Shown here piece after piece: positions 2,325 to 59,406 of a DNA stretch of 64,000 nt. The first letter of the stretch is position 1; every line of letters begins with the position of its first letter. The stretch spans positions 63,674,001 through 63,738,000 of the forward strand of contig NC_086376.1 in assembly GCF_036588685.1 (NCBI RefSeq). The letters run 5' to 3'. The stretch is from Mytilus trossulus. Lineage: Eukaryota. Below the pieces are notes generated by a model that saw nothing but the letters and a program-made list of their open reading frames with translations, was not told the DNA's origin and did not search any database. The translations under genes and the position numbers were made by a program.

Positions 2325-4850
2325 GATACAATGGTGGCAATGTTTAAAGACGAATCGGCACCAATTTAAAAATACCCGAAATATTAATAAGTATGAAGCA
2401 GCTCTGCCAGGTGTAATTTTACTATGTTCTGATACTAAGGAAAAGTCAAATGGGACAAGTCATCAAAATGAGGATGCATTCGAATGGATTGAAAAGCTCA
2501 TGATAGGTTTCAGTCAGGTCGTCAAAAAAAGGACAGATACAATGGCAGTAAAACAAAAATAGTGGTGACTGGTAACTCATAGTCAAAAGAAAAAGACAGC
2601 AAACAAACATAGCATTAAAATACAGGATGTAGAGAACAAAAAAGCTCGATTGAACAGGAATTCCTCCAAAGAAATGATAGAATAATTCCCTAAAAAGTAT
2701 AAGTTCGGCCATTCGTTTGATGTATTTGAGCTTTTGATTTTGTATTTTATTAGGGACTTTCTATTTTGAAATTTGCTCAGAGTTAAGTATTTTTATGATT
2801 TTACATTTTCTTTTCAGCGAATGGGTTTAAAGTTTAGCATTTGTTCTTTGCTATTATGTGATACTAGTAGTGGGCTAAATGTGTCTAATTACTACATTCA
2901 AAATTATAACATCAAAAATACCAAACTCTAAGGTAAATTAAGAAAACGACCATAAATCCGATCAAGACCAAACATTTGACTATATCAATAAACCATCATT
3001 GGAGCACATGGAAACAACTGTCAAATTCCTGTCTTTGTAAGAAAAATTCTTTTAGTTAATTAGAAGCCATTGCCTGTCTGTGAGTCTGACTGTCCCTCTG
3101 GTATCTTTCGTCCCTCTTTTAGAAAATTTATTATCCTCACCTATGGATGAATAATACTATCGTTATTTCTATATGACATCATTTCAACCTTCTATAAAAT
3201 CATAATCTTATCTTTAGCAACAGAATCTAGTTTACATCGTTTCAAGTTTAACTTAATCTTGTAACAGTATTGCATATCATTTTTGATGTGCATTCAATTT
3301 CCAATTAATAATATTGTGTTGTACTATAAAGCAGATCGTATTGGTCACGTTTATGCATTTTTCTTAATACACGTGCTGTGTTCATGCATGTCTGAAGCAT
3401 TTTTGTCTTAATATTCCACTATTTCACTGTATGAGCGTACGAATTCCACTGTTTGAAATGAAGGGTAATTAAAATAAGTTCAATTAAAACATCCAGCGCA
3501 AAATGAATGACAGAAAATGAAAATAAATGTGATGAAACAATGGTGGCAATGCTTGAAGATGAATCGGCACCAAATTGAAAACACGTCAAACATCAAAGGT
3601 ATGAAGCAGCTCTGTCAGGTCTGATTTTACTATGTTCAGTTACTTAGAGAAAGTCAAATGGGAAAAGTTATCAGAATGAGAATACATGCCAATGGATTTA
3701 ATAGCTCATGATTGGCCTCAGTCATGTCTTCCAAAAAAAGGGCCAGATACAATGGCAGTAAAACAAAAATAGTGGTGGTAACGCACAAAAACAAATATAA
3801 AAGACAGCAAACAAAAATAGCATTAAAAATCCACGATGAAGAGAACAAAAAAAAACCTCAATTGAACAGGAATTCCTCCTAAAATTGATAGAATAATTCG
3901 TTGAGGTTTCCAAATTTCCTTTAGATTGACCTTTCAAGTACACAAGACATATAAGGCAATCAACTTAGGAGTTTTGTGATTTAATTGAAGGGTACAATAT
4001 ATTTTTTGTTTTATTGATGAACAACCGCAGTGTTTATATTTACAATATCAATTCTGAAACACATTGAAACATTTTTTTGGAATTATTCCGAAGGGCATGC
4101 AGATTTTTATAGATTCGTCGAAAAATAATGATAGTTATGGATACCAAGCTCCGTTGGACCATGGTCATGTTACCTTATGATTTCAATTCTAAAACAGACC
4201 AATAATGTACTAGTATCACACATAATGTACTAGTATCACACATAATGTACTAGTATCACACATAATGCACAAGCATTAAACATGACGGTTTTCAAGGTTT
4301 TTATCATGAAAAGTGGTGAAGTTAGAAAATTTAGTAATATCACCTATTGAAGAATAATAATACCGTTATCCCTATATGACATCATTTCAACCTACTGCCA
4401 TATTGTATATTTACAGATGAATAACGGGTTAAACGTTTATAGTAGATCAAGATAAAACTGATGTAATATATACCTAATAATCGTGTCTTCAGCAACATCA
4501 TCTTGTTTACATCGTTTCAAATTTTAATTAATCTTGTTTACAGTATTGCATATTACGAGGCATAGGCTTAGTAACTAGAAACAACTGAAACATGATTACT
4601 TCATATCATTTATGATGTGCATTCAATTTCCAATTAATAATATTGTGTGGTACTTTATAGCAGATCGTATTGTTCACGTTTATGCATTTTTCTAAATACA
4701 CGTGCCGCGTTAATGGATGTCTAATGCATTATTGTCTTATTATTCCACTATTTCACTGCATGAGCTATGCAAATCTTTACTGTTTAAAATGTAGGTTAAT
4801 TAAATAAGTTCAATTAAAACATCAAGCGCAAAATGAATTACAGAAAATGA
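2325..4850. repeat. Old, diverged tandem duplication with a period of about 1.2 kb
   Basis: 2325-2690 matches 3533-3900 (acaatggtggcaatg...gatagaataattc); 3130-3520 matches 4335-4850. Confidence 0.85.
4202..4267. repeat. 20-bp tandem repeat x3
   Basis: (cataatgtactagtatcaca)n. Confidence 0.95.
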
Positions 4851-4927
4851 CATTTGCAATCGAGTGAGAAACATTTATTACGACATAAGTTAACTCATCA
4901 TAGATACCAGGACTAAATTTAGTATAT

Positions 4928-4971
4928 ACGCCAGACGCGCGTTTCATCTACAAAAGACTCATCAGTGACGC
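4928..4971 (-). ncRNA. Minimal type I hammerhead ribozyme, core intact
   Basis: Reverse complement reads gcgtca-CTGATGA-gtc ttttgta gat-GAAA-cgcgcg-TC-tggcgt. Confidence 0.8.
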
Positions 4972-7900
4972 TAGAATCCAAAAATGTTAAAAAGCAACCT
5001 AAATATGGTCTATTTCATAAAATTCCTATTTGTTCTTCATATTTGAAGAATGATAAGCATTATTGAATCATATCTTTATCTTTTAGAAAAAACTAGTATG
5101 AGCAAAACATGTTGTAGAAGAGCCATCTTAGATTTAACTTGATCCTTATCAATAAAACTATAAAAACCAAATCGATCTTATATCAGTCCTAGAGTAAGAT
5201 AAATCCCTATTTTTTTAACCAAACTACCTAAGGTTAAATAAGTTTACATCAAGGTTAGACCAGTTCTACTCAAAGTCAAGATAAATGTACCTTGACAATC
5301 AAAATGTAGAAAAACTGTGACCTTTAAGATGTAAGATGATACGATCAGTCCTTAAAAGGCATAACAAAAGAAGCAAATCCAGTTTTAAAAAAAATATTCA
5401 CTGAACCTTAAATAAAAAAAAATCAATCATTGAAAAAAAATATTTGAGTTGTAAAGTTTTGTAATGTTTTGATAGTATAAAGATGTATATGAGTTTATCA
5501 AAGGGTATAATGACAAATAAAGGTTTGGATAACCTGCCACCTGAATTATAGACCCGTCATATGTCATTTTCCCCCGCACTTAAAAGCGTATTTTAGAAGG
5601 GTTGATAAAACATGATAGTGTAGGTCATGACAATAATAAAAAGACCCATAGAAACCATCTTTAATGGGAAAATGTTATAAATTAAAATACATCTCTGCAA
5701 GGTTCTATTCATTTAAATTGTGCTCAAGAAGAAGTTTGAATAAGAAAAAAAAAATCGGATGACAGGTGACAAAGGAAGAAAAACTATCACCATGTGCATG
5801 TGAAAGGTCGACTTAAAAAGGGGTAAATGAAATAAAGACACTTATACAACATTAACCAAGGAAAGACTTAAAATATCACGACCGAACCCAAGAACAATTT
5901 CACGTGATGTTAAAAATGTTACAAAAAAAACAAAACAGTAGGAAAACGTCTGATAACTACCACAAAACTTATTAATTTGATTGTCGGTGTATAATGGCGT
6001 TCACATAATGACAAAGAATCCTTATATGTATGAAACGATTTAAACAAACTGATTTAGAGGTTTACTTCTGTAAGTTACCATTTTGTGAAAATGATACAAA
6101 TGTTTAAAAATTAATTTACTCTCTATAAATTTGTCAAAGAAAAATAATGGTAATAAGTGGCAAAGGCTTCTTTTATTTCAGAAATCATTCCAATCAGTTA
6201 TTATTGCGATTTCTGCTTGATAGATAAATACACGAGAATAATAATTGCCATTACAGGAAGGAAAATCTGCATACAAAAATATGAAGATAAGTTCTAATAT
6301 TTACAATACTCACGTATGTACCCAATCGAATTATACCCAATAATAAAAACCTTAAAATATTTTCTGAATTTAAAGTTGACGATAATTCAACGACCCCTGC
6401 TGATATATGTTTAATCTTTAGATAAGTAATTATATGAATTACGTGTTTTACGTATATAAAGATCATAAAATCGTGACACACCACAACAAAACTTTGAATC
6501 TTAAGCAAGTTGAAAATCTGAATAACGTGTCAGACTAAGAGTAGAATGCGCAATAGTTAATCTGATTATGTTTGATAATCTAAGATAAGTAAGAAAAGCG
6601 AATGAATTCACGTTTTGGTCGTTAATCCATTGAAATGGTAAATTTAGGTTGTAATACATGTAAATTATGAAATGCTTAATATGGATCTATATAAGATATC
6701 ATGTTATGAATACTTATGATGATACAACAAAAGTAAACTACGCTTCAATTTTAAAACTTACATAGTCACACTGCTGGTGTGCTCCCTCGTTAATTCATGT
6801 GTGTGAACATTCAATATGAAAATAAAGAGATGGTGTATGATCGGAGATAAGACAACTATACACCAAATTTCAAACTTAGTGAGTGTAGGCAATTTAAAGT
6901 AGCTTTACTGCCGTCAACAATGAGAAACCATTTTATGGTTCAATCTGCTATAAAATGTTCCCACATGAAACAAATCAACTGCGACAATTAAAGGATAAAA
7001 TGTATAACGAAAAACAAAAATGACAGACATGAACCAACGACAAATTCTAAAATACTGGATCCGTTCACATAGAATGCTGTTGGGTTACACATATATGAAA
7101 TCGCCAACCTTTCACACACAGACATGTTGTATTAGTCATTTTTGTAATAGAGATGATATTAAAATTCAGTCCTCCTTAATATTACAAAACCCTGCATGAG
7201 GTTTAGTTGCATAAGGAAGGTTGACCTAGACGAAGACATGGTAAAATGTATCTTAAAATCCTGTCATAAATAAACTCATCAAAGATACCAGGACTAAATT
7301 GAGTATATACGACAGACGCGCGTTCCGTCTAAAACATACTCATCAGTGACACTCGAATCCAAAAAAGTTAAAAAGCAACCATATATATGGTCTTTTTCAT
7401 AAAATTCCTATTTGTGCCTCAAATTTGAAGAATGATAAGCATTATTGAATTATATCTTTATCTTTTAGAAAAAGCAAGTATGAGCAAAACATGTTGTAGA
7501 AGAGCCATCTTGGATTTAACATGATCCTTATCAATAAAAAACCATAAAAACCAAATCGATCTTATATCAGTCCTAGGGTAAAATAAATCCCTATTTTTTT
7601 AACCAAACTACCTAAGGTTAAATAAGTTTACATCAAGGTTAGACCAGTTCTACTCAAAGTCAAGATAAACGTACCTTGACAATATCAAAATGTAGAAAAA
7701 CTGTGACCTTTAAGATGTAAGATGATACGATCAGTCCTTAAAAGGCATAACAAAAGAAGCAAATCCAGTTTTAAAAAAAATATTCACTGAACCTTAAATA
7801 AAATAAAATCAATCATTGAAAAAAAATATTTGAGTTGTAAAGTTTTGTAATGTTTTGATAGTATAAAGATGTATATGAGTGTAAAAAAGGGTATAATCAC

Positions 7901-9359: not shown

Positions 9360-11599
9360 ATTAATTCATTTGTGTGAACATTCAATATAAAAATAAAGAC
9401 AGGGTGTATGATTGGAGATAAGACAACTATAAACCAAATTTCAAATTTAGTGAGTGTAAGCAATTATAAGTAGCCGTTCTGCCGCCAACAATGAGAAACC
9501 ATTGAATAGTTCAATCTGCTATAAACTGTCCCTACTTGAAACGAATCAACTGCGACAATAAAAGGATAAAATTTTATAACGAAAAACAAAAATGACAGAC
9601 ATGAACCAACGACAAATTCGAAAATACTGGCTTCGTTCACATAGAATGCTGTTGGGTTACACATATATGAAATCGCTAACCTTCCACACACAGACATGTT
9701 GTATTAGTAATTTTTGTAATAGAGATGATATTAAAATTCAGTCCTGCTTAATGTTACAAAACCCTGCATGAGGTTTAGTTGCATAAGGCAGGTTAACCTA
9801 GACGAAGACATGGTAAAATGTATCTTAAAATCCTGTCATAAATAAACTCATCAAAGATACCAGGACTAAATTTAGTATATACGCCAGACGCGCTTTTCGT
9901 CTACAAAAGCCTCATCGGTGACGCTCGAATCCCAAAAAATTAATAATGCCAAATAAGTACGAAGTTGAAGAGCATTGAGAACCAAAATTCCTAAAAGTTT
10001 TGCCAAATACGGTTTTGTTAGGGCTATAAAGTTATATTAGCTCTTTAATAAACACAAGATGTATAAACACCATCAACAATTTCGGATAACATGCCTTCTT
10101 GGTTACAAACGCGTCAAAAGTCATGTTTCCCCACCACTTCAAGTAGCTGTGTGGACCGTAAAACAAATATTTTTATGTGCAAGTCAGCGCAGTGATAGAG
10201 AGACAAGCGAGAATTATCTGAAATGCACCGCTTTTAATCGGGGCATCTAGCATTCTTGTTGGTCAGTCTTTGGTTTTCTTTGATTTGTTTTGTGTACTTA
10301 TCTTTTTAGTTTTTAGCCACAATGTTGTTATTTTATTATCAACTTAGAAGTTTGGGTTCCTTTGGTGTCTTTCGTCTCCCTCTTATCAAGTACAATACGG
10401 TAAATAAAAATGCCATATAGGACTTCCAGTTAATATTTTTCGGTAAAAAAATTAATATTTTACCTTAATATATTGCTAAATTCAGTAGTTTACTAAACTA
10501 TTTTAGCTCTAATGTGGAAGCAAGTTTTCCTCGAGCTGTAGAGGTACGATTATCTTAATATCATCATCTTACTTTCCTCCAAGCACGTGGCAAATACTGC
10601 AGACGGTTCAACCTGGTCCTTTAAGAATAACCTATCCGCTTACGATGACATGTCTTTCTGACCATTATTTAAACTGTTAACACCGAACAATTTTTTCAAA
10701 AAGTTGTTTTAGATAATTGCTGCAAACGTTGTTTTCACTCTACTGCATCCGTTTGCTGTCCAAATTGTAATCAATGTCATTTCTCGTCTCATACGTTATA
10801 GATAAAGGCAAGTATTTAAAAAAGCTATATAAAACGTAACCAGTTATTTCGGAATAGAAAGTTGATGTTCCAGTTATGTCAAAGAACATCGGGTCCTTAA
10901 AGGCTTTTTAGATAAAAAGGTCACTCTTAAATCTAGCTGATAGACATCCCGTATCCACTTCACAAACAGTACACAATGGTCTTGAAGTATATATTCTAGG
11001 TGAAGTGTTTGTTTGTCATCTTGATTAATCTTATTGTGTTCATTGTATTTGGTGTCGTACAACTATATTTTTAACTTTAACTTTTTTTAAATTTTGGTAA
11101 TATTCTATTGGCGTGGGCGGGTATTTATACACTCTGACATTGTGTTTTTGTGCTAGGGTCATTTGTTTTGTAGTCTTCTTTTTTTTTTCTGCCTAAATGT
11201 AGGTGTTTGGTCTATTTAGTTTGTATATGCAATATTATTTTACTTTTTGTCTTCATATGGATAAAGATTGTAACATAATGTTCATTTTTTTCCTTTTTAA
11301 TGTCTGTTTGTTTTGTTCACATATAATATCATTATAATGATTTTTAATTTTGCGACTCTAATAAAATGATAGCTTTTGCTAGCTGTAAAACCAGAGTTTA
11401 TGTTCCATTTTCTACATAAGGAACTAAAGATTAAACAAGAATTGCAACAAAAAATACAATAGATTGTTTAAAATCTGAAAGCTTCCTCAAACATTCTGTA
11501 CAGTGTGGTCAAGACAAAATGACAAATATATTTCTTAGCAAGCAGATTATTGAACAAAGGGTCTTAAAGCTTACGTTTAAACTAAACCTTTACCGATTA

Positions 11600-11850
11600 T
11601 GTCTGTTTGTTTTGTTCACAAATCGTTGTAATTATAAAAGAATTTGATACGACTGTCAGACAAGTGAAGTTACCGAGCAATACATTCAGGTTGTATCCAC
11701 TATTTTCTACATAAAATAATGTCTGTACCAAGTCAGTAATATGACAGTTGTTATCCATTCGTTTGATTTGTTGGAGCATGTAATTCTGCATTTTGATTAC
11801 GGACTTTCCGTTTAAAGTTTAAGAGCTCGGTATTTTTGTTATTTTACTTT
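11600..11850. mobile_element. Dispersed repeat family C (atgacagttgttatccattcgtttgat...)
   Basis: Copies at ~270-510, 2710-2810, and inverted at 27840-28010 and ~2910-3035. Confidence 0.75.
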
Positions 11851-15466: not shown

Positions 15467-18400
15467 GTAACTATTCTTAGAATCTTGTATTGAATTGATT
15501 TATTTTATAACAAAATCAAATGTGCACGCATTTATATTTTTTAATTTCACATTTTGTTATTATTATTTTTATGATTTTCTTATGACTTTGGAGAATTAAT
15601 TCTAAGAAATATTAGAAATCTTAATCAAACAAAATTTGTTTGTGTGTTGGCTTTTTCATCATCGGATTCCTTAAGCATAATGGCAGCTAATATAGGCTAT
15701 TGACCTCTATAACTTAGGGACTGACCTTTATGTCTTGTTGTGTCGTGACATAGACAACATGCTTTGTTGAGTTAACAGTGATATTAATTCGTCGTGACGT
15801 ATGACGCTGTTTTGTTATGTACCAATTCTTAGTCTATAAATGTTCATATTAAGATTCCTTCTTAATTTAAAAAGTATTTTTCAAATGTTTCAAGGGTGTT
15901 TCCAAAATTGCAAAACACAACTTTGTATTCATTCCAAATCAACCAATCTGTGTAAAGCACTTGCTTGCATATCTTTTGCGTCCTTGAGGGGGATGCTTTT
16001 ATGTTTTTGTATGCATACAAAGTTGGAACTATTCTCTTTTAACCTACAGAAACATTTTTGCAATTTTCTTCTTAAAATTCGATGTAAAAAGATATATACA
16101 AAATATTTGTGTGGTTTTGGTAATATGCGTTCGGTTTCGCCTGCTTTATTTTCAACTGTAATATGATTTTAAACTTGGATTTCCAACTGTTCAAGTACTC
16201 CTTTATTAACTTTACTTTCTCCATTACCAAATGTCAGTTTCTTTGGGTACAAAAATACTGACTAAGCTCCGTAATAAGATAAGCCGAACGCTTCTATATT
16301 TTCGTATAGCTGTATTGTACGAGAGGTTACTATTGTATTATTCATGTAGTTTAATATTTAATAAACCAAGACAAATACACTCGCCATCAGACAGCGAATG
16401 TATAAAGACAATTTAAAAGGTTTTTTCACGTACATTGTATAATAGCCGTTAATAATTTACTTTGTCATTTGCTGTTTCATCAGGATAACAAGCCTTACAT
16501 GCTTGAAGAAGTATATTGTCTTATAAAAATGTCACTTTTAATTATCGTAATTATATAGAACATTCTACAAATGTATTCGAAAGGTCCGAAAGATTGTATA
16601 ACTGACTGTATTTGAAATATGTTATAACAAATATAGATAGCTCTTGTCCAAAATATATTGAATATACTTTATATATGATATCAAGTAAATGCCCCCACAA
16701 TAAAAATGCATAGAGATTAAACATTGTTTTGTTTTGTTTCCATAATGTAAAAAAATATATTGTGTAATCTCACACAATCTCAGCTATCATAAATATATCA
16801 TTGCAATATATAATCAATATTTTTAATATTCGTTTATTCTTATAAGCTATGTTAAAGTCGGCTCTATGTAATAGCAATAGAAATAGAATTTCTTATACCT
16901 ACTCTAGTTAATATTCGTCATATTTTAATACCAGTATATCTTGATCAATACTTACACTAATAGAACCATCCAAAGCCAAAATAAACCCAGCTACTCTTAC
17001 TTTTTGTCGAAATATAATTAAGAAGATGTGATATAAATGTCAATGAAACAACTCTCCAACCGAGCCCAACTATCGTAGAAGTTAGCAGCTATAGGTCACC
17101 GTGTGGCATTCGTTGAAGAGCAAAATCCACACCACACAACAAGCTATAACAGGCACAGATATCACAAACGTAAAAAACATTTAAACGGTAAAAGCTGGCA
17201 GCCTTATTTATGTGCTAAACAATGTACATATGTATTTGTAAATTTGTCTGATAGTCCGTCCTGTTATCTTTGTAAAACTGATATTAATTAATTTGAAATC
17301 ATTCCTTATACGAAATACCAACACAAAGTTAACAAAGTTCATAGCTCATGATTAGGATTATACGGATGTTCTTCATCTCAAGTCTAAGTAAGCTGTACAC
17401 TCGAAACAATACCGGTTTGAGCAGAATTATTCTTTTAAACGTCCATACCGCGTTTTATGTGCATTGAGAATTAAGTTTATTTTTAAAATTATTCCTAAAC
17501 TATAAGCATGATGAAGGAAAGTCAACACCGAATTGATAATATTGACCCTACAACTGCTTTTTGTAAATAAGATTCATAATCACTATCAATTCTACAAGAC
17601 AAATCGTAGCGTTGTAAACTTTAGACATTAATAGCCATATTAGGAAATTTGAACATCATTTGAATTAAGGCATACATTCTCCTTGGTATCTCTTTTATAA
17701 AAAGCATCAAGAGAATGATTTCTGGGTGTACATTTGTGTACTATTGTTTGACTAATTTTCATTTTTAGTCATGGCGTTGTCAGTTTGTTTTAGATTTATG
17801 AGTTTGACTGTCCCTTTGGTATCTTTCGTCCCTCTTTTAAGAGTAGTTCTAAATATCACATTTCTAAAAACATTTTAGTCGACACATCACATTGCACACA
17901 ACGTTTCAGTTGCATAATTTAAATCAAGGTTGTTGTTATTTTACAAATCATTATCATCAATAGTTGTTATTTTACAAATGATGAGTATTGATGGGTGATA
18001 ATAATTGAATAGTTATTTTGTTTTTATCACTTACTGATAATGATATTGTAACAATTATTGATGAGTACCGTATAATTCTGGTAAAAGTTTTATCTATCAT
18101 TTGATCTCAAATCCCATTAATATGTTTATATTATAGGACTTTCTTCACATTACTAACATTAAACATCAGTCGCGAGCCACTATGTGAACCATTGTGGCGA
18201 ATGAAGTCGGGAAAGAGCCAAACAAAGGTTTTACATTGTGTAGAGCGACAGTTAATATCATCACAAACTTTAATCTATAAATCAGAATAATGAGCATGTT
18301 CTGTTTATTAGATTTTCATAACACTTTGCTAAATCAACACAGGAGTCTCATAGATAAAATATATGATTTTAATTGCTGTTCATCATCTGAAAGACGCATT

Positions 18401-26058: not shown

Positions 26059-26282
26059 TCTTAATTTTGATGGTTCAAATGTTTACCAGGTGATCGAATC
26101 AGGACCCAAGTAGCCTCTGGTCCTTTCCCTATTCATTTGAAGGTCATCATATTCAATTAGAAGTTTACTTCTATAATTCATTATTTAAATCGGGGTTTTT
26201 TTTTTTTTCGTTCAAACTTCATGGCACTTATTTTGTAGTTTGATAAGTTTTAAAAAAAAATTGTGTACTTTTATGTGTCTTT

Positions 26283-26532
26283 AAAAGAGGGACGAAAGAT
26301 ACCAAAGGGACAGTCAAACTCGTAAATCTAAAACAATGGACAGTCAAACTCAGAAATCTAAACTAAACTGACAACGCCATGGCTAAAAATGAAAAAGACA
26401 AACAGACAAACATTAGTACACATGACACAACACAGAAAACTAAATATTAACAACACGAACTCCACAAAAAGCTAGGGGTGATCTCAGGTGCTCCGGAAGG
26501 GTAATCAGATCCTGCTCCACATGTGGTACCCG
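26283..26532. mobile_element. Dispersed repeat family B (aaaagagggacgaaagataccaaagggacagtcaaactc...)
   Basis: Inverted copies at 17735-17838, 43230-43341, 3084-3120; diverged copies at ~10260-10383 and ~57040-57132. Confidence 0.8.
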
Positions 26533-27033
26533 TTCTTTGTTTTCCCCGTAGCATTGTTAATTTGTTATATCTGATAAGTTTGTATATCCCAACTAGTATC
26601 TTTTGTCTTTCTCTTTTGTAGCGTTACGTTTGATTATGACATGCAATATAATTTCAAGGATTATATAACGAAATAAGAGTTTTATTGAAAATCGGTATCC
26701 ACTTATTACTATCTTCATTTTCATTAAAAAAAATGTGCACCTTACTTTTTTGCTATTGTTCCTTTTCGTTGGTCTTGATTTTTACATAGTTATCTTCTGA
26801 TGACCCCGGTATGGACATTTTCAAAATTAAAATCGATTGTTTTCAATGATACCCATAATTGACAAGTGCATACACATTTGCGACTACTGGTCCGCTAATA
26901 TTTGTCATATATGTTAATCATTTTAGTTTCCTGATAAAAAAAAATCCTATTTATATTATGCTTTCTTATTCTAAAATTTGTAACCCTTCTGTAGTTTATG
27001 CAAAAAAATACAGTCAAGCCTCATTAGCCAATA

Positions 27034-27328: not shown

Positions 27329-28864
27329 AACAGAAAGAAAAGTCTTTATACAATTTATTTTAACAAATGAGATGAGTTATGGTGTCAAAGATACCAAATG
27401 TGTCTCTCACTGGCATTTACTTCTTTTTTTGACAGTAATTCCCGTTTTAGAAATTTAAGTTCAGTACCTTGTTATTCTTTTTTAATCAGCAAAAATATTT
27501 ACTTGAAGACAACAGAAGTATGAATTAAAGAACTCTGGTATTTGTTTTCTTCTTAATACTGGTTCATAGAAATAAAGTTAACCATTCATACAGGAACAAT
27601 GTGTTTTCATTCCTTACATAAGTACAAATCGTCAGCTGAAAAACCTGTTCACCAACCTAAACGTAGACGTTACGTATAATTTCAATGATTAACAAATAGT
27701 AGGAATTCTTTTCATATGAAACGTTTTCCGTTGAAAAGTATGGCTTTGGGGATCTGCCTTAAGACCATTAAAACAAGTTTCTTAGACAGTCGATGTTCTT
27801 TTCATGAACATTTGAAAAGCAAACTTAATGTTAAACAAAGAAAAATGTAATATAACAAAAATCCCGAACTCCCTGTAAATTCTAAAAGAAAATTCTTTAA
27901 TCAAATGGCAAAACAAAAAGTTCAAACACATCAAACGAATGGAAAATAACTGTCACACTCTTAACTTGGAAAAGGCTTTAAATTGTGTATAAAAGGTGGA
28001 TTAAACCTGTCTTAGCTTATTTACCTTTCACATGAACAGCATATGCAAAAACAGAAAAGTTGGCATATTAATCATAAAAGAGGATGTTCAACATTTTAAT
28101 TGTGTTTAGTCGTCTTATATTTCTTTATAACAGAGTTGATATTTAAGTCTGAATTTGCAGTTACTTAGGATTCTATTTGGCTTAAACGTTCCTTGCATAA
28201 TTCTGGATAGATACGAACTCAAATACCATTTCCTTTTCAGGCATTTTTCACTATAATGTTAATTGATAAAAAAAATGAGCAGTGCTTTACTGCATTCCAT
28301 TTAGAGAACTTGAATTGTCTAAAAAAAAAATAATAATTTTTACCATTCCTATATAAAAGTATATTTATATGGATATCATTATGCCAGATATACAACTATT
28401 GAAAATAAAACAAAACACAAAATAAGAAACTTTGCTATGATAGAATAGTGTTTGATAGCGTATTAATATCATATCTAAACGAGAAAAGGAGGCGTTTAAT
28501 GTATTGAGGGAGTAAGTAACAAATCATAAAGAGAAGAAAATATAAGTAGACGTTATGACACTTTGGTATTATAATTGGATCAACAGACAAATAATGAAGG
28601 ATTTTGTGATCCAAACACATTAATATTTTTTTTATTTTTTTTTAGGGAATGATTACATGGCTTTCATAATGGAAATAAAACCAGAATTTATTAGTTTGAC
28701 ATATAACTTAGCAAATTTATAGATATTATACGTGTCTAATGATAGTATTGTTTTCAAAAAGGTTGGGTAAAAATAAACTCGAACAAACATATTCCACTTC
28801 ATGTCTGTGAAAGAAATAAGCCGTATCTGTAACTGTCTCAATTATCGGCATGTTACTATGTTAT

Positions 28865-30258
28865 GTTCGGCAGAATTAATTTCTGTCTACCCGTGCGAGA
28901 TGGACACAGATTAGACTCATAAGCGAAAGCTGAAAAAAAGTTAAAGGAAGAGAAATGACATGGTCTGCGAAAGCGCAAATTAGTCCACAGACATAAACTA
29001 TCATACATACCATGATTGAACTTTTTTATTTGCGCCCAACGCGCGTTTCGTCTACAAAATATTCATCAGTGAAAGTCGAATGAAAATATGTTAAAAAGGC
29101 AAAAGTGCTGACTACTGGGCTGGTGAGATACCCTCCATCAGCAGTAGCATCAACATAGTGGTTGTAAATAAACTCATGATACTATATTCTGTTCGGTTGA
29201 ATTAGTTTCTGTCTTCCTCGTGCGAGATGGACACAGATTTGACTTATAAGCGAAAGCTGAAAAATAGTTAAACGAAGAGAAATTACCTGGTCTGCGAAAG
29301 CACAAGTTAATCCTCAGATATAAACTTTCATACATACCATGATTGAATTTTTTAAGGTGCACCTAACGCGCGTTTTGTCTATAAAGACTCATCAGTGAAG
29401 GTAGAATTAAAAAATGTAAAAAAAAAAACAGAAAAAAAGTACGATGTTGAAAATATAATAAAGAAGATGTGGTATGATTGCCAATGAGGCAACTGTCCAC
29501 AAGAGACTTAAATGGCACAGACATTAACTATAGATCACCGTACGGCCTTCAACAATGAGCTAAGCCCATACCGCATAGTCAGCTATAAAAGGCCCCGATT
29601 AGACAATGTAAAACAATTCAAACGAGAAAACTAACGGTCTAATTTATATAAAACAATGAAGCATTGAGTAACAAAAACATTTTGGACGAATACAGCTAAG
29701 GTTATCCAATCATGAAGTAGAAAAACCGTAGTACTTAAAAAATTCAAAGTTTAAATTATATTTGATTCGGTACTTTGTAAACAGTTAGTTTATAATTATG
29801 AACATACGCATAATAAATTAAGTCAGCAAAGAAGTGCAGACTACTAGGCTGGTGCTACCCTCGCGGAATTAAAACTCCATCAGCAGTTGCATCAACCTAG
29901 TGGTTTTAATTAAATCATCATAGATACCGGAATTGAAATTTTATATTAGCGCCAGATGCGCGTTCCGTCTACAAAATACTCAACATTGATGCCATTATCA
30001 AAAAATGTTAAAAAGTCCAAATCAAGTACGAAGTATAAGAGCATTGAGGATCAAAAATTGCTTAAAGCTTTGCCAAATACATCTTAGGTAATCTAACCCT
30101 GAGGTATACACACTTAAGTATTCCATAAAGTTTAAGTAATATTCGATTCGGTATTTTGTAAACATTTAACTTATAATTGTAAACATATCAATGATAACTC
30201 AAGTCAACACAGAAGTGCTGACTACTGGGCTGGTGATACCCTCGCGAAATAAAACTCC
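28865..30258 (-). mobile_element. Degenerate tandem array of hammerhead-repeat monomers, interrupted by a dispersed repeat at 29461-29655
   Basis: Three degenerate hammerhead cores (~29030-29075, 29357-29400, 29950-29992) and three gtgctgactactgggctggtg-like blocks (~29105, 29834, 30214). Confidence 0.8.
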
Positions 30259-31629
30259 AATAACATCTATTTTGTTATTAGTTGAATGACAGGAACTTTG
30301 GAGTTCCGGTTCACTGTCGTTCTATCAACTTCAACCAATACAACGTCCAACAAATGAAATGTGTGCCCACTTACTTCATTAAATGGTTCCTGTTTTTGTC
30401 GTTTTACTGAAATGCTCCTTACCGTTTTTGCTGACCAAAATATGATTTCGAACCTACCAAATGGCGGTTATCCCAGTAACACAGATATACGCACGGAACG
30501 CATATTATTATATATGATTTTACTTTTATATTTTTTTACAAAAGTTAACGGACGAAATTTGGGTGTTTTGACTTGGTTTGTTTTGACTTGGTTTGTTTTG
30601 ACCAAATACGTTAACAAATTCGCAAAATACAGGATCGGATAATACTAACACCATATGTTTTTATAAAAGAGAGGGAGGCAGAAAATAGCTTGGGGATATT
30701 TACACTGATGTTACCATCTGCAATGATAATACAACAGGATACCAAATGCCGTTGACTTTCATTGGTTAAATCAATTGAAACTGACCTAAAACCAAACTTT
30801 ATCATGCAATAAATAAAAAAAATTCAAAAGTTATGCACCATAATGAGGGGGCGTGACAATATGTTACAGATATTATTAGAAGTACATATGCTCATTCAAC
30901 TGTATATCAAATATCATTGAATTACCATCAGTGTATTATTATATACTGACCTTATTACCCAACTTAACATGTAAACTATGCAAAAGTTTCAAAGTTAATA
31001 GACCATAACTTGAGGGTGAATCAATTAATATATAGGTATAGGAAGATGTGGTGTGAGTGCCAATGAGACAACTCTCCATCCAAACAACAATTCAAAAATT
31101 ATACCATTATAGGTTAAAGTACGGAATATGTATGGAAAAAAGATGACATATTAAAAAAGTAAAATAGCAAAAATACCTTTAGTAATATCAAAGTACGTAA
31201 TTCAAATTCACGACAACTCAGGAACGTATTCGTGATTGCAAAAATCAGACCAATGATAATAAAAAAGCTAATTGTTGGATATTACTATTTTTAGAGCGGA
31301 AGTAAAAAAGACAACAGATAGTCCCTTAATAACCCGTAATTCATACAGAGTCTGATTGACGCAGCTGCAGTAAATTAGATTCATTACACAATGAAGATGT
31401 ATGTATAAGTTTTCTTCTGTAACCATCTTTTCTCTTATTTGAGTTATCACATAAAATGACAGTTATTTCTTTGTATAATATGATAGCGAGTGACCTAGTA
31501 TTAAAACGGTAAAAATGAAATAATTTACAAAGCAAATCAAACTGAAATAAATATACAACAGTTTGTACACTTCCGGTTGTTTCTGTTAACCAAATTGAAA
31601 AAAAAGTTATATCTAGTGCAGCGACATTT

Positions 31630-31731: not shown

Positions 31732-33708
31732 ACAATATTGGGCATGTTTATAAATGTTTTATACGTGTATTGACAGTTTTATAGTTTTAATTGTAGCCAT
31801 CGTTAGGTGTAGTATAAACGTTATTCAGAAAAATATCATAATCAATTCTCTTGTATTCGACACGAAAGCGTTATAAGCTTCTTCATTCCCCAGTTTCTAA
31901 GCCTCATACAAAAACAGTGATGTTTTGTCTGACATTGACTTAATTATGTATAATTATTCATTTTTTCAAGGAGTTTTTTTTACTGCTGTTATTAATCTAA
32001 CTATTAGTGGGTTGTCTTTTTGATGAACTTTTGAAGTCTCAATTTAAAAACGAAATTATGACATTGCCCTTGAATTGAGGTAGCGGTTGTCTCTTACATT
32101 CACGTTTGAATTGTTAAACATTGTCATTTCGGGGTCTTTTATAACTAACTATGTTGTACGGGTATGGAATTTGCTCATTGTTGAAGGCCGTAAGGCTACC
32201 TATATTTTTGTGTCATTTTTGTCTCTTGTGTAGAGTTGTCTCATTAGCAAGCATACCACATCTTCCTTTTTATGGTGATAGTTCACAGGGGGTATAAAAA
32301 GTTCCCAGGGGGCGCACCTTTATTCATTTACTAGTATTCCTTAACCGACAACAAAACATCGTTTGACCATTATTTATTCGGATAATCCTTGACACAATTC
32401 GACTCGGGCAAAGAGTGTTGCTTGCTCATTACATTAACTCCACATCTCGATGAAACTTGCTTCAGAAAAAGGGTTCGCAATGAACGAAACCGGTAATATA
32501 CAGTTGTATTATGATTAAATACATTTTGATTTTTAGTGGTTTTATCATATTAAATGTCAACCAAAGATTAAAGTGTCCCATCAAGAGATAGCTTCAAGCT
32601 AAAATCGAAATTTAATAATTATTTATATAAATTAACCCAAAAGTATCAAGTGTTAAAGGATGTTAGTCAATATTAACAGAAAAAATCTATGTTCTGGAGG
32701 ACGGTTGGGAGTCATTTTCAACAGATAATATCTATTTTTAATATCACAAAATGACTGTTGGGAATCATTAACCATAATTACCTGTGTCAATCTACCCTTA
32801 ATTCAAGAAATCGATGCGAGGTCGAAATTGTGTTTATTTCATTGTTTCACTTTTGATGTCCCTTTATATAGGATTTATAATGATTGCAAATGGTAATAAG
32901 GTACTTTAACCCAAAGTATGTGTTATGTGGTTAGTAAACCATCTCCTGGGTTTGTTATATTAATTGCGTTCTATTTGTGTAGTTTCAGCTTCAAGCAATG
33001 TAGTCTTATCATTTTTGTGTGTAAAGCCTTTCACATAACAAACAATAACAATCAAACCCAAGGAGTAAACAAAGACTGACAAAACCAGAGGACATTTACA
33101 TCAACAGTCATAAATAATAATTCAGAATTCCCCATTAAAAAATTAAAAAAATTAAAACCATTATAAGATTAGATACTATTATAAAATATATTAAATAGGA
33201 TTATAAATCTCTAATGATATATAAAATTTCTATATGAGTAAAGACATTTCCAATGACATAGAACATCTTTGTATTGGTATAAAAAAAAAAAGAAATCTGC
33301 AATGCTATGCTATATGACATGTATGTATTGGCATCAAAGAATATGCCATGTCTTCTAGTGTTGATAAATGCAAAGAGGGCAATAATTCTTAATCATTCGT
33401 AAGCGAAAGATAGACAAAACCATAATCTGAAAACATCATCGTAAAGACTAGAAAAAGTTGAAAAAAACCCAGATCGAGCTTCAAGTATCGTACAAAGACA
33501 CATGAAAGATGCAGAAGAAATTCAAGGTATATGGTGAGGTAAAATGCACCCATAGTGATACCCTGCGTGTTATTTCTGACATATAAAAAGCAGTTCTGCT
33601 CCACCAATGATACCTGCTTCTAGTATATTAGTCCTGACATGTCAAAAACAGTACTGGTCTACTCATGGTACCAAGTAGTTATCAAATGTATCAGGATTAT
33701 AATTTAGT

Positions 33709-33752
33709 ACACCAGACACGCGTTTCGTCTACATAAGACTCATCAGTGACGC
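33709..33752 (-). ncRNA. Minimal type I hammerhead ribozyme, core intact
   Basis: Reverse complement reads gcgtca-CTGATGA-gtc ttatgta gac-GAAA-cgcgtg-TC-tggtgt; lies in repeat ~33680-33912. Confidence 0.8.
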
Positions 33753-34129
33753 TCAATATTTATAAAGCAAAACAAGTACAAAGTTGAAGAGCATTGAGGA
33801 TCCAAAATTCCAAAAAGTTGTTTCAAATACGGCTAAGGAAATATATACCTGGGATAAGAAAATCCTTAGTTTTTCGAAAATTCAAAGTTTTGTAAACAGG
33901 AAATTTATAAAACCGTGTTATTCCTACTATGTACAAAACTTTACTGTCAAATCTGAACTTTTAATCTGAAGCTATAAAAAAATCTAATCTGTAATGGAAA
34001 AAAAACTTTTTTTCAATTTTCAACACATCATGCACATTTAAGGGTTAAACATAGATTGGCCTGTACATGTGTCGTATCATTAATTAATATCTGCCAACAT
34101 TTGACTCCTCGTTTCATGGGGTTCGACAG

Positions 34130-35400
34130 ATCTGATAGCATGCATTGCCCTATTTAACAGGTTTGCTATCATCGGCCTTTTATTTTTAAAGGTCTGCTAT
34201 CGTGAGCTTTGTGAATTATCAAGATCTGTATCAAGTAGAGTCTCGTTGAAAAGATCTGCTATCACGTGAATTCTTGTTAGTTTGAAAAGATATGTGCCTT
34301 CTCATTTCAAACATTCTGCTTTCATGTACTGTATTGTCATTGCCAAGTTTTTAAGATCTGCTTGCATATGAATTTTTTTTAATTCTGCTATCGTGTCCTT
34401 TCTTATTTTGAAAGTTTTTCTATCATGTGCGGTTTTCCTTCAAAAGTTCATCTATCAGGACGGGACTTTGCATCTTAAATAATAAGCTACCAACAAAAAT
34501 TTCACAAAAAGTAAAAATCTTATACACAGACAAAATCAAAGGCAAACACTGATATTGGTATTATATCAGTAATGACACAAATTTTATGCCACATGATATA
34601 AGGACAACATTATTTCTTATGACATTCTTCTAACCCTTCCGGAGTGGAGTTCGTGTGTTTCTTATCTATTATTTGTAACTGTTGATGTAAATGTCTTTTG
34701 GTTTTATCAGTTTTTGTTTACTCCTTGGTTTTGATATTGTTATATTTATAAATTAACTGTTTACCAAATTTTGAATTGTTTGAAATACTTTTCTACCTCA
34801 TGCATAGATTACCTTAGCTGTATTTGGAAACTCTTTTAGGAATTTTGAATCTCAATGCTCTTCAACTTCGTATTTTTTTTTTTTTGCTTTTTTAACACTT
34901 TTGGATTCGAGCGTCACTGATGAGTCTCTTGTAGACGAAACGCGCGTCTGGTGTATATATAGAATTTAGTCCTGGTATCTATGATGAGTTTATTTGATTG
35001 TTATTGTCTATTAACTAGTATAATAATTTGACCAATTGTTCTCTCAATTTCAAAATATGATTGTGACATAAAATCAGTTCTATCCTTAGATGTTAAATTA
35101 ACATGTGATATGGATTATCGACCTTTTGTCTCGTTATCATTGCGTATTATATCTTTATTTCTCCTGATGGAGATAAAATAGTGAGTAAATGATAAATAAA
35201 TCATTACATATGGATGTATGTGCATCAAATATTTGACGCAATCACTAGCTTATGTAGTAGGTTAGTGAAAGCTTTAGTTGATTAATAAATTAATCTCTCA
35301 AATATCAACCAGTATCTCAAACATGTTTTAGTAAAGAATGCATAAAATCGTAATGAAATAATATCTTCGACGTCATCTAAATGACCCCCGATGACTGTCG
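34130..35400. repeat. Old duplication shared with ~40465-41330, including a degenerate ~32-bp tandem repeat
   Basis: Repeated gatctgctatcatgtg motif at 34130-34460 and 40465-40910; atccttagatg...tatcgacct...tatatcttta at 35080-35157 and 40983-41058. Confidence 0.65.
34911..34954 (+). ncRNA. Minimal type I hammerhead ribozyme, core intact
   Basis: gcgtca-CTGATGA-gtc tcttgta gac-GAAA-cgcgcg-TC-tggtgt; predicted cleavage after C34948; lies in repeat ~34740-34995. Confidence 0.85.
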
Positions 35401-39563: not shown

Positions 39564-39955
39564 GGTATATATGATGAGTTTGTTTACAACCACTGGGTCG
39601 ATGCCACTGCTGGTGGAGATTTATTTCGCCGAGGGTATCACAAGCCCAGTAGTCAGCACTTTTTGTGCTGACAGGAATTGTCATTGATATGGTTATATTT
39701 ATAAATGCACTGTTTAAAAATTGTAGAATTTTTTGAAATACTAAGGCTTTTTTACCTCAGGCATAGATAACCTTAGCTGTATCTGGTATAACTTTAAGGA
39801 ATTTTGGTCCTCTATGCTCTTCAACTTCGTACTTTATTTGTCCTTTTTATCTTTTTTGGACTCGAGCGTCACTGATGAGTCTTTTGTAGACGAAACGCGC
39901 GTCTGGCGTATATATTAAATTTAGTCCTGGTATCTATGATGAGTTTATTATACAA
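39564..39955 (+). mobile_element. Full ~365-bp monomer of the hammerhead-bearing repeat (PLE pLTR / retrozyme-like)
   Basis: Terminally redundant: ggtatatatgatgagtttgtttacaa at the start and ggtatctatgatgagtttattatacaa at the end; contains the hammerhead. Confidence 0.85.
39866..39909 (+). ncRNA. Minimal type I hammerhead ribozyme, best copy
   Basis: gcgtca-CTGATGA-gtc ttttgta gac-GAAA-cgcgcg-TC-tggcgt; predicted cleavage after C39903. Confidence 0.88.
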
Positions 39956-42850: not shown

Positions 42851-44791
42851 TTTCTTTATTTTCTTAAGTGTTGGAGTTCTATTAGGCATTTGTCAAAACA
42901 GGGTATTTTTTTAGTGCTGTCGTAAGCTCATCTGATCAAATTCATATATAATTTCACTTTTTACTAACCATCATGTAGTATCTACCCTTTATGTGATCTT
43001 TATTGTTCCAAAAAAAATCAGACAGATTTGGCTAATACATTTTCATGTGGTTCCCAGTTATATTTCGATATGTACAAAGGGATTAAATTGTTAAGAGGGT
43101 ACACAGGCAAAATTTGTTGTGAAATTTTTCACATGAATTTCACATAAACTTTTACAAAAAAAAAGTTCGTACTTTTCATGATTTTAATCAGAATTAAAAA
43201 TTTAATGTTATTTGCATTATGTTATTTTGTCATGTGTACTATTGTTTGTCTGTTTGTCTTTTCATTTTTAGCCATGGCGTTGTTAGTTTATTTTCGATTT
43301 ATGAGTTTGACTGTCCCTTTGGTATCTTTCGTCCCTCTTTTATAACCACTGGGTCGATGTCTCTGCTGGTGGACATTTTGTCCCCGAGGACATCATCCGC
43401 CATGTAGCAAAACTGCAATTGCATGAATTTATGAAGATCAAACAGGAAACTGGCTCGGACGTCGCCCAGGATAAAAAGGTCTGAAACAGACGTCACCATA
43501 GACACGGTGTCGTCTGATACGGCAGGTGTCCCCGCATCACCAGAAATGACAATTATCTCAAACATGACTCATTCAGATCATCGTCCTAGTGACAATAGCA
43601 ATATTACACATAAACAGCCATGTTCGGTTCTCCTTAAAGACATTTTGGTTTTTGATGACACAGTACAATACTGTCGCATTTCGAAATGTGAGACCGAAGG
43701 CTGCAAAACTTCTGAAATTTTAATTACAGATGCGGAATTCACAAGCAATTTGACCAATTAGTCATATTTTATCAGAAGTTACGGTGATATGTATTGTAAA
43801 TCGATAAATGTCGTCTACGGATTAGAGCACAACCTTTGCGGATTAGTATACGTCGGTTAAACGAGAGGAAGGCTAAACAAACGTATGTGTGGTCAAAGAT
43901 CAGATTAATCTCAATGCTAACGACATTCTATACCATCATTTCAATCAGCCGATCATTCCATCGTTTCTATGACAGTTCGCATTATCGAAAAGATATACCA
44001 TAGCTCCTATCTTTCAACGACCCTCCGTAGACAAAAAGAGGACTACTGGAATAGACAATCGGGAACGGCGACATCTTATGTTTGCAATGACAATATTGAC
44101 GGTATAGGTATTATATCCAGTCCTTCGTGTAACTCGGTGAATGTGATGAATATTTTCAACTCGACTCTTCGACGTTGACGCAGTCATGGTCATCGTCTTT
44201 ATACATCACCTTATCTGCATGATGTCTTAATTAATGACATGCTGCCATTTATACAAAAGTCGGTAGGTATTCATCACATTCGCACGAAACTTTATTCATT
44301 ACCCCTTTAAAACTTCATTCTCTGTTCAATTTAGGTTAAGAATCCACTGTAACAAACCCTCATTCAAACCAATACAAATTTGAAGCTATAATTTCGGATA
44401 TTGCCAGTCACAGACTTTTCATGCCAGTATGCATTGGAAAAGATGAAAAAGAGAAAATATATTTCCTTAATCTTTCCTTTGCCAACAAAGGTCTCTATGG
44501 CGTCAACTAAGCCAATATCCTTCATCATAAATTGGTTCAATCGAAAATACCAGACCGTACCAATCATTTATTTTACCTATACCAAACCTTTAATTTCAAC
44601 TAAAATTTTTAATTACAAACACGTTTTGCAGGATCTCGATATTGACGACTTCAAGTCTAAACCTCCTGATTGAACTTGTGCTAGTTCATTGTTAATAACA
44701 CTTCTCTAAGAAATGTGTTATCGAAAGGTCCGAAATATCGTGAGCCTAAATCCATTAATTGAGAATACAACTTTGAAATGTTGTTGGATTC

Positions 44792-45642
44792 CAGGGTTTC
44801 CGCTGGCGGTCGCCATTTTCGCAATTTGCGAAAAAATAACAATTGTGGCGATTAAAATTTGTCATTGGTGAAAGAATTTGGCGAAAGAAATATATAACTC
44901 TGACTTTACCGATCAGACAATACTCGGAATTCACCTTGAACTCGTTAAGATTTTGACCGAAAATCAATAAGCGGCTGATTGCATTCATAGCTATCGACAT
45001 CAAAGGACTAATTAATAAAGGTGTTGATTGTATGATATGACAAAATGATATAGTTAAATGGCTTCTGTCATATGTCACAAAAAGGTTTCTTAACCACTTT
45101 GCGACGCACGTGTTTAAAGCAAATTTTTTACGCTTCCTCTCCTTCTTTTGTATGATAGTCCAGAAAAGAAAATTGCTGTTATGATGAAAAATGTTCAAAA
45201 GCAAGAAAGGTCTCTGATTTAAAACTTTATCATTTAACTTTCATATATATTATTGATTTGAGTAAGTACTTCAAAGTCATTTCGGTGATACACGTGTTTC
45301 AAGCATATACTTTAACTTATTTCCGATGGTCTAGAAAAGAAAACTGTCGTTATGAAGAAATCTATTCAAAAGGTTGGCACGAGAGTAACCCTTCGATGTA
45401 ATGACTACACCTTACACGAGGTATCAATTCCAAGTGATAAGATGCTTCGTTTTGTTGTAAAAACCACTTCTTACTTAGTGTGCGTGTGCGGGGGGGGGGG
45501 GGGGGGGGGGGCTGAAAAAAAGGAAAATTTTAAAAGAAAAATATATTTGTATTACTTAGCGAAAAAATAATAAAGTGGCGAAAAATATATTGTTTTGACG
45601 AAAGAAGTGGCGAAAAAAATAATTGAACCAGGGGAAACCCTG
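44792..45642. mobile_element. hAT-like MITE nested in the PLE
   Basis: TIRs CAGGGTTTCCGCTGG / CCAGGGGAAACCCTG; 8-bp TSD TTGGATTC (44784-44791, 45643-45650); internal G run at ~45490-45511. Confidence 0.92.
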
Positions 45643-45869
45643 TTGGATTCAGTCGAGGATTATGCTAGACAATGGGCTAAGCGCGAGAAGGAAGACGTAT
45701 AAGCTCTTTCCGAATGGATTAGAGCAGTGAGGTAGGTCGTTGATACAAATCAGAATTAAGAATCTGAATGGGTCTATCAATGCCCATGCTACGTCAATCT
45801 TTAAAGACCCAAATGTTGCAAAAAAATTATCCTACCTCCATGACAAGTATGTCCCCGCAGATACATTAA

Positions 45870-46488
45870 GGGCATACGATACAGTTACAGGGGAGGTAAT
45901 GACGTTGCTAACGTAAAATGTTATTTTCGCGACGTCAAACTGTGACATATCAAGAAAAGATGCATTTTTCGACTGATTTTTATCATTCAAACTGATTTAA
46001 TTTGAAAACGAGTTCATGGACCCCTATTTTTCAAAACAGCAATTTGTTTCATTTTGCAGGGAGATTATGTGACCCAAATTTTATAAAACTGTAAATAGAG
46101 GATTTTTTTTAATTTTGATAAACATGCAGCAAAAAATGACGTATTTTCCTTAATTCATGAGCATTTGATAAATACGAGTTATTTCTGAATAAAAAATGCA
46201 TAATGTTTTATGATACTTATAAAATACAGAAATTACCGATTATTTAACAAAGAACAATTTGTGTTTATCTTTTATAACAAAAAAGTTATGTCTTTTTTTC
46301 AAAAAAGAAATTACGGCCACAAATCTGAATTTTGAGCAAATATACAAAATTTCGACCTCATTTTGCTCAAAAAGTAGCACATGAAGGTATATTTTTTATT
46401 ACATATTTGATTTAATCAGGTAAAAACTAGCCTATATGCAAATTTTTACGAACTTGTAAATACTGGATCGAAACTGTATCGTATGCCC
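45870..46488. mobile_element. Kolobok-like MITE nested in the PLE
   Basis: TTAA|GGGCATACGATACAGTT ... AACTGTATCGTATGCCC|TTAA; removing it restores the reading YINCLINELG. Confidence 0.9.
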
Positions 46489-58806: not shown

Positions 58807-59406
58807 CTAAAATTAATATATAAAAAATGTTTAAAACAAATTTATAAATACACTTCAATAAGCAAGCTTAGGCATAATAATTACAGTACAATCAAGGATT
58901 TAAAAGAAATTTTAAAACAGTTTGACTACAGCACTGAATTCTTATATGTTTGAAACTGTCACTTTGAAATCTGTCAAAAAAAAAGAAAGAGAACAAAATA
59001 TTCCAAGATGAATAAAGTCAGAAAATAAAATTGAGAAAGGAAATGGGGAAGGTGTCAAAACGCAACAACTCGGCCATAGAGCAGACAACAGACGAAGGCC
59101 ACCAATGCATGTGTCTTCAATGAAGTGAGAAACTCCTGCACCCAGAGGCATCCTTCAGCTGGCCCCTAAATGTTTGTAATTATAAAAACTGTGTAATTAA
59201 AGCAATTACAAATGTACACAAAATTGATAATAAATTAATAAAAGTTAAAAAAAGAAAAAATTAAGACAAGATAGCATGAATTACTTATTAGTAACGCAAA
59301 ATAGTCAATATAAGATTTTGTAATTAACTGGAATCCCAACATGTATAAAAGAAATTTAGGGCATTGTATCGTGAAATGAGATAAACACATAGGGCATTTC
59401 TATTAC

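Follow-up and report, generated by a model that had tools for sequence, protein, structure and literature searches.

A hairpin shared by mussel retrozymes and hammerhead-free Naiad elements, a candidate signal for internal initiation of reverse transcription

The 64,000-nt stretch of the Mytilus trossulus genome analyzed here (hereafter the window) contains a repeat with a hammerhead ribozyme and a Penelope element (PLE) of the Naiad type that resemble each other over a short stretch, which raises the question of how the two are related and whether the PLE supplies the enzyme by which the repeat is spread. For animal retrozymes, the identity of the mobilizing enzyme and the way in which an endless circle is recognized are stated to be open questions (PMC7229834; bioRxiv 10.64898/2026.07.22.740005). 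An earlier note on this DNA took the hammerhead repeats either for solo or tandem pLTRs of the Naiad or for retrozymes mobilized by its GIY-YIG/RT family. The shared stretch is neither a hammerhead nor a pLTR but a bulged hairpin of ~65 nt with compensatory changes. The features directly concerned are as follows.

39564..39949, plus strand: retrozyme copy of ~1.06 monomers, its 3' end 2-5 nt before the expected start of the next hairpin
39589..39652, plus strand: hairpin in the retrozyme monomer (family R1), counterpart of the Naiad-A start hairpin
39866..39909, plus strand: type I hammerhead with a predicted cut 3' of 39903; in the R1 unit this is 48 nt ahead of where the hairpin sits
43225..43344, plus strand: upstream pLTR, the last 120 nt of the Naiad-A 3' UTR, without a hammerhead
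43345..43408, plus strand: ~65-nt bulged hairpin at the Naiad-A 5' start, the 3' strand of its outer stem worn in this copy

Comparison of the window with itself (blastn) aligns 43339-43395 with 39583-39640 at 84.5% identity over 58 nt (E 1e-11), which confirms the likeness claimed between the PLE 5' end (43342..43392) and positions 39586-39634 of the monomer, both stretches lying where they had been placed. The shared stretch also precedes the EN-RT coding region as claimed, 78 nt 5' of the ATG at 43423, after which the EN-RT frame follows, broken in this copy. The link to a "hammerhead repeat" holds insofar as the match is with the hammerhead-bearing monomer, but the matching piece is ~280 nt away from the hammerhead and includes none of it. 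Between an intact Naiad-A unit and the retrozyme monomers, the sole strong match is about the first 63-71 nt of the unit, the identity of Naiad A to each monomer being 0.82-0.85 in the first 65 nt and 0.42-0.49 in the 65 nt on either side. The hairpin outlasts the retrozyme body as well: R1 and R3 are 0.83 identical in the former and 0.60 in the latter, and R2 and R3, 0.88 and 0.62. It matches no Rfam family in a scan of the window at E up to 5.

The coding partner, family A, has a unit of 3370 bp that is often tandem (20 of the 40 best copies inspected, with flanks). Six complete EN-RT frames of 1000 aa are found in 5 of the 20 inspected loci, full copies are 97-100% identical, and young, intact copies are present. 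The single ORF places a GIY-YIG endonuclease N-terminal to the RT (motifs at 136 and 844), with Pfam matches, both below the curated cut-offs, to GIY-YIG at 130-167 (E 0.033) and to RVT_1 at 640-849 (E 1.8e-4); the protein (P0001) further contains a Zn-finger-like CxxC at 89, a KR block at 259, CxC at 431, GxKF/Y at 466 and DKA at 557. The family displays partial tandems, a pLTR and 5' truncation, and its 3370-bp body compares with ~3.4-4.4 kb in Naiads. The marks described for Naiad PLEs are an N-terminal GIY-YIG, CxC, GxKY/F, DKA, partial tandems with a pLTR, 5' truncation and the absence of a canonical hammerhead (Craig et al., 2021; PMC8557442); the same marks characterize family A. Judged by domain order, motifs and identity to family C (see below), element A is a Naiad PLE. 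Two exact-word probes of the published Naiad consensus file (PMC8557442) did not match it. The copies and pieces of family A in the window, in addition to the pLTR and hairpin above, are these.

43423..44791, plus strand: 5' part of the Naiad-A ORF with the Zn-finger-like motif, GIY-YIG and KR block; stops, frameshifts and deletions
44792..45642, no strand assigned: insertion interrupting the ORF, flanked by an 8-bp target duplication and bearing short inverted ends
45643..45865, plus strand: middle piece of the Naiad-A ORF
45870..46488, no strand assigned: insertion with inverted ends between two TTAA
46489..47496, plus strand: RT core of Naiad A, with YIDD; this copy lacks the element's 3' end
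3082..3121, plus strand: short solo Naiad-A 3' end, stops at -2
10253..10386, plus strand: older solo Naiad-A-like 3' end, stops at -1
17735..17839, plus strand: solo Naiad-A 3' end, stops at -2
26282..26533, minus strand: solo Naiad-A 3' end, stops at -2

The Naiad ORF of the window is thus interrupted by two DNA-transposon-like insertions (44792-45642 and 45870-46488), the first of which we take to be hAT-like and the second of which is presumably Kolobok-like. A satellite of ~60 bp at L140:4367-5284 derives from the Naiad-A 3' UTR, and at L040:6369-6431 and L130:9198-9458 pieces of Naiad A and retrozyme are directly joined, possibly by template switching or nested insertion. Two further Naiad families, B and C, were found in random DNA of this genome. 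Family C shares 55.6% aa identity with A over 1009 columns and, by eye, matches Naiad_Mgal/Mcor in the protein start and 5' DNA. Family B is 38% identical to A at the aa level and contains in-frame TGA codons; a young frame at L159:3962-6628 (minus strand; also L153-L162) is open but for 5 in-frame TGA in this copy, a trait that resembles the selenoprotein Naiads of clams, and the 5' start of B is different and lacks the hairpin. Solo 3' ends of Naiads C and B occupy positions 236-469, 2709-2809, 11287-11851, 27839-28009 and 59022-59170 of the window.

The comparison proposed in the earlier note, namely whether hammerhead-bearing pLTRs flank the full-length ORF, was run on family A. All 21 starts lie directly after the element's own 3' end (the pLTR), and a pattern search finds the pLTR ahead of 11 of 12 A-type loci; a hammerhead is present within 500 nt of none of the 21, so that full-length family members lack the hammerhead repeat at these ends, and the CTGAnGA..GAAA core is absent from both strands of two intact Naiad units (A and C). 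Identity between the pLTR and the monomer is 0.45-0.49 versus shuffled means of 0.43-0.45, that is, the two are unrelated. Hence a derivation of the hammerhead repeats from this Naiad, as its solo or tandem pLTRs, is very improbable, even though vertebrate retrozymes resemble PLE pLTRs (bioRxiv 10.64898/2026.07.22.740005) and both the retrozyme and Naiad A build head-to-tail arrays: homology does not extend beyond the 65-nt hairpin, the hairpin lies outside the Naiad 3' repeat, and for A and C this derivation is refuted. The retrozyme body may have originated from an extinct or unsampled hammerhead-bearing PLE.

The non-coding partner falls into three families, R1, R2 and R3, with units of 363, 354 and 352 nt, respectively; tandem arrays of R1 and R2 are present and none was seen for R3, and no ORF of 100 aa spans the retrozyme monomer. 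In the window, Rfam yields three hammerheads at E up to 5 and no match at gathering scores, the hammerhead at 39866-39909 reaching 32.5 bits with RF00163, slightly under the gathering score of 34. Exact counts over the whole 1.3-Gb genome amount to 16,593 hammerhead words and 11,895 retrozyme-type hairpin words (controls 0); for family A, 6,411 exact 3'-end words compare with at most 225 Naiad-type hairpin words (controls 0), and of 30 of these 225 that were inspected, 14 were Naiads and the remainder mutated retrozymes. Further retrozyme pieces in the window are listed here.

4886..4994, minus strand: 5'-truncated R1 copy, ends at -2
7267..7375, minus strand: 5'-truncated R1 copy, ends at -2
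9839..10010, minus strand: 5'-truncated R1 copy, ends at -2
28993..30259, minus strand: cluster of old rearranged retrozyme pieces, the hairpin worn in some
33673..33912, minus strand: 5'-truncated R2 copy with hammerhead, ends at -2
34731..34995, plus strand: 5'-truncated R1 copy with hammerhead, ends at -3

The third family, R3 (L373:1483-1835, L084:3191-3529 and window positions 13571-13708, minus strand), has a diverged hammerhead in which the changes in stems II and III preserve pairing, and a hairpin as in R1 and R2. Long R2 arrays with dozens of 354-355-bp units are located near the start of contig C1 (G000:C1:113122-143424 and 269555-291170).

The hairpin opens two Naiad families of this genome (A and C) and is present in all three retrozyme families, whereas the family B start lacks the motif. 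The same fold is predicted for each of the five families alone (z -2.5 to -3.75), and the hairpin is predicted to form within circular R1 and R2 monomers with pair probabilities of 0.99-1.0; the folded R3 copy has a mutated outer stem. Within a 400-nt Naiad-A context the pair probability is just 0.56-0.62, without the hairpin being the single best fold. Because the reverse strand folds equally well or better, folding energy alone leaves the strand unfixed. In an alignment of 12 rows, a small and related set, 96% of 275 cells are paired versus 38-51% in slid controls, and 6 of 23 pairs are changed on both sides, a value reached in 1 of 500 shuffles. Given that related rows can beat shuffles by the tool's own warning, and that the double changes in the outer stem all come from one family, this covariation is support rather than proof; the inner fold is not proven by it because the invariant core pairs never vary. 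Family C has the outer stem ACCAAG/CTTGGT in place of ACTGGG/CCCAGT, plus an extra hairpin. Among published Naiad 5' ends the outer stems vary yet, by eye, remain complementary, e.g., ACCGAAC/GTTCGGT in the Pacific oyster (PMC8557442).

The antisense strand deserves mention because one R2 copy (L045) contains CTGATGA..GAAAC on the minus strand over the shared stretch. That the stretch is an opposite-strand hammerhead is nevertheless scarcely conceivable: the first four bases of the core vary by family, with no CUGA in A, C, R1, R3 or typical R2, and Rfam finds nothing at this place. An HDV-like ribozyme was also considered and rejected, the strand order being unfit (by eye, against the topology of that ribozyme).

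In 1 Mb of unselected DNA (100 stretches of 10 kb), ends were mapped with the first base of the hairpin segment as reference, counting matches with at least 40 nt upstream that are not cut by the end of a stretch (R1/R2, 60 of 65; R3, 5 of 7; A, 70 of 71; C, 52 of 54) and excluding from the 3'-end counts six R1/R2 matches that read through the hairpin. Within -20..+10 of the hairpin, mostly at -5..-1, lie the 3' ends of 45/54 R1/R2, 3/5 R3, 41/70 A and 38/52 C matches (rough binomial p of 4e-26, 9e-15 and 1e-18 for R1/R2, A and C, respectively), whereas only 2/54, 1/70 and 0/52 of the R1/R2, A and C ends fall inside +11..+139. Of the 29 Naiad-A 3' ends (of 70) that are off the peak, 28 are upstream of it, these being old or broken pieces and one satellite. 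Exact R2 ends without the hairpin number 3,247 across the genome; inspection by eye of the 100 listed shows 99 that stop before it. By comparison, 5' ends are scattered, with at most 11/49, 16/49 and 12/42 in any 31-nt interval.

The hairpin thus occupies the same offset from the 3' insertion end in retrozymes and in Naiads A and C. A fixed 3' end as such is generic, since the hairpin-free family B also has one (43/50, before B's own different start), so the link rests on the shared hairpin together with the shared offset. No common target signature of retrozymes and Naiads was found in the A+T content of the 20-nt flanks, the one flank property compared (R, 0.71; A, 0.68; C, 0.70; B, 0.68; background, 0.67).

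The hammerhead cut lies at -48, -44 and -36 relative to the hairpin in the three retrozyme families and, being 36-48 nt before the hairpin, does not set the 3' end. Nor do 5' ends pile up at the cut among the short R2 copies listed (by eye), and a run-off origin from hammerhead-cut linear RNA was rejected: only ~5 of the 100 short R2 copies listed (of 409 genome-wide) begin, by eye, at the cut, the others having 5' ends spread on both sides of it or indels. In the 1-Mb sample, 7/49 5' ends fall at -50..-41. Because most retrozyme copies reach back through the hammerhead site, the template would be a circle or an uncut multimer. Self-cleavage and circular RNA have been demonstrated for the mussel retrozyme, and its RNA is mainly circular (PMC7229834).

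Three raw RNA runs and one contig set, chosen by species label and derived from other animals, were aligned to the monomer. Reads cross the joint between the end and the start of the monomer, as expected for circles and for tandem read-through alike, and these joint-crossing reads are strand-biased in two runs (e.g., 116 vs 38 and 162 vs 13). The repeat is exited at 39949 into unlike flanks (agreement 0.41-0.42) by 431, 611 and 493 reads, so that the fixed 3' end is repeated in independent data; no site over the monomer shows many molecule starts or ends in the RNA reads.

These observations are probably best accounted for by a hairpin that recruits the Naiad RT for internal initiation and that was captured by retrozyme circles, an interpretation drawn from sequence comparison. 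The Naiad EN-RT protein would bind the hairpin, nick genomic DNA and prime reverse transcription within the RNA, a few bases 5' of the hairpin; the first hairpin would never be copied, and the insert would stop just before it. Tandem Naiad RNA and retrozyme circles would both serve as templates, and longer runs, round the circle or along the tandem RNA, would give rise to partial tandems, pLTRs and retrozyme arrays in which the hairpin occurs only at inner joints. Internal initiation predicts just such copies, which end immediately before a motif that they contain at inner joints only. There is a precedent in Poseidon, with internal initiation and a protein-binding region 3' of the start (PMC11167929). 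The retrozyme would be chimeric, a hammerhead circle that has taken up a Naiad hairpin, with the enzyme supplied in trans by Naiad family A or C; the donor was most likely the family-A line, which has the same outer stem and no inserted hairpin.

As regards the earlier proposal that the repeats are retrozymes mobilized by this GIY-YIG/RT family, the support is indirect, through the shared covarying hairpin at a common 3'-end offset, and it does not single out the family because family C (and many Naiads) carry the same hairpin. The suggestion that element and probable mobilizer are visible in one window also needs amendment: a retrozyme and a Naiad copy are both present, but the latter is dead and is therefore not itself the mobilizer.

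Two other roles of the hairpin have to be weighed. It could be a cleavage or processing signal (a new ribozyme or a nuclease site) cutting just 5' of itself and thereby producing an RNA 3' end for target-primed reverse transcription, with the Naiad RT still the mobilizer. Such a signal would yield the same fixed 3' ends, the invariant core would fit a catalytic role, Naiads are described without hammerheads (PMC8557442), and the hairpin occupies the position of the Poseidon hammerhead (PMC11167929). We consider this improbable, given that no Rfam family matches the hairpin at E up to 5 and that the joint is read through in 21/21 Naiad starts, in long retrozyme arrays and in RNA reads without a pile-up of molecule ends; a second active cut would moreover open the circles, yet mussel retrozyme RNA is mostly circular (PMC7229834).

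The hairpin could instead serve expression, as an internal promoter or in translation or RNA stability, and have been captured by the retrozyme for that purpose, the retrozyme being copied by another enzyme and the common offset being a relic of descent from a Naiad junction. The location 78 nt before the ATG, the good representation of the retrozyme in RNA runs and the location of PLE promoters in or near the pLTR (PMC11167929) are compatible with such a role. It is unlikely all the same, as retrozymes have no translatable frame yet keep the fold better than the body, and compensatory changes point to an RNA structure rather than a DNA motif. Furthermore, the last 65 nt of the retrozymes match the 3' ends of Naiads A, B and C no better than shuffles do, which means that the position of the end was retained while the upstream sequence was not. 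If internal initiation is correct, the hairpin probably marks the place at which the Naiad enzyme takes hold of the RNA and begins copying, and thus likely names the enzyme that spreads the repeat.

Two arrangements around the start site are of additional interest. Naiads A and C and retrozymes R1-R3 all have a GGT(A) word 22-28 nt upstream of the hairpin (43320-43348 and 39925-39950 in the window); it could pair with the junction bases and close the start site in a ~20-nt loop, which is predicted for A and not for R2. At G000:C5:60421476-60422433 (minus strand), eleven head-to-tail copies of a 78-bp Naiad-A hairpin unit directly precede the start of a Naiad ORF, so that the proposed signal forms a minimal tandem by itself.

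The motif extends beyond mussels. Exact-word searches read by eye, in which line breaks may conceal more cases, show that 16 of the 54 published Naiad consensi, from corals to fish, begin with the hairpin core (PMC8557442). It is complete in 13 of them (nine bivalves, three hemichordate families and one fish), and the three coral consensi have the inner core only. A metagenome scan gave at least 120 matches; among the matches listed, two score well (L291, retrozyme-like, and L323, Naiad-like, to which no family closer than A was found in this genome) and the others are chance-like. The hairpin core has no matches in viral contigs. It is conceivable, as a tentative generalization in which we place somewhat less than even confidence, that in a large Naiad clade, from corals to fish, the hairpin is a telomerase-like boundary and recruitment element that makes the RT start inside the RNA, that mussel retrozymes are hammerhead circles with this captured module, and that the hairpin alone would suffice to get any circular RNA copied into the genome by a Naiad EN-RT.

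How these findings relate to known systems can be stated briefly. The non-LTR retrozyme of Mytilus galloprovincialis was described by Cervera and de la Pena (2020), who named PLEs strong candidate mobilizers (PMC7229834). It resembles the present one in its type I hammerhead, in unit length (~350-390-nt tandem units vs 352-363 nt here), in its thousands of copies and in being transcribed, a likeness in description; the portions of that paper available to us report two ribozyme families (R3 being a third here) and do not describe a fixed insertion end, a Naiad link or a shared hairpin. Part of the published Naiad consensi carry the conserved 5' hairpin, which the accessible text does not describe, and the 30-40-bp tail associated with Naiads ends few copies in this genome (PMC8557442). 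The retrozyme, the Naiads and the proposal of PLEs as mobilizers are in print already. In the open literature we found no report of a hairpin shared with hammerhead-free Naiads or of a common end offset, on which the supplementary material to PMC7229834 and to the bioRxiv preprint cited below could bear.

Vertebrate retrozymes share sequence with PLE termini and have been proposed to hijack PLE enzymes (Li, Clavereau and Pollet, bioRxiv 10.64898/2026.07.22.740005). What is shared in that case is the pLTR of Xenopus PLEs, with its hammerhead, whereas here it is a 5' hairpin outside the pLTR and the partner has no hammerhead; molluscs are outside the sample of that study, and its authors leave the mechanism open. 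In Poseidon_Ac, reverse transcription begins inside the RNA near the junction of pLTR and ORF, at sites that agree with the genomic ends (Frangieh et al., 2024; PMC11167929). That element differs in belonging to another PLE clade, with a C-terminal EN and a hammerhead; its initiation sites are in an AC-rich stem-loop, 111-118 nt into the ORF, and that study tested no non-autonomous partner (PMC11167929). As the start site predicted here is defined to within a few bases, the question of the retrozyme mobilizer becomes directly testable with the Poseidon assay (PMC11167929).

The hairpin link points to an enzyme clade that can be named and has young, intact copies, offers a candidate signal of 65 nt with natural compensatory variants and, if true, would explain how hammerhead-free Naiads fix their ends and form pLTRs. 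In SINE-LINE pairs, a non-coding element borrows an RT via a shared structured RNA motif, and SINEs share and copy the LINE 3' tail. In the mussel, by contrast, the insert stops short of the shared motif, which is copied at inner joints alone, so that parasite and host would be linked through a motif outside the copied 3' end.
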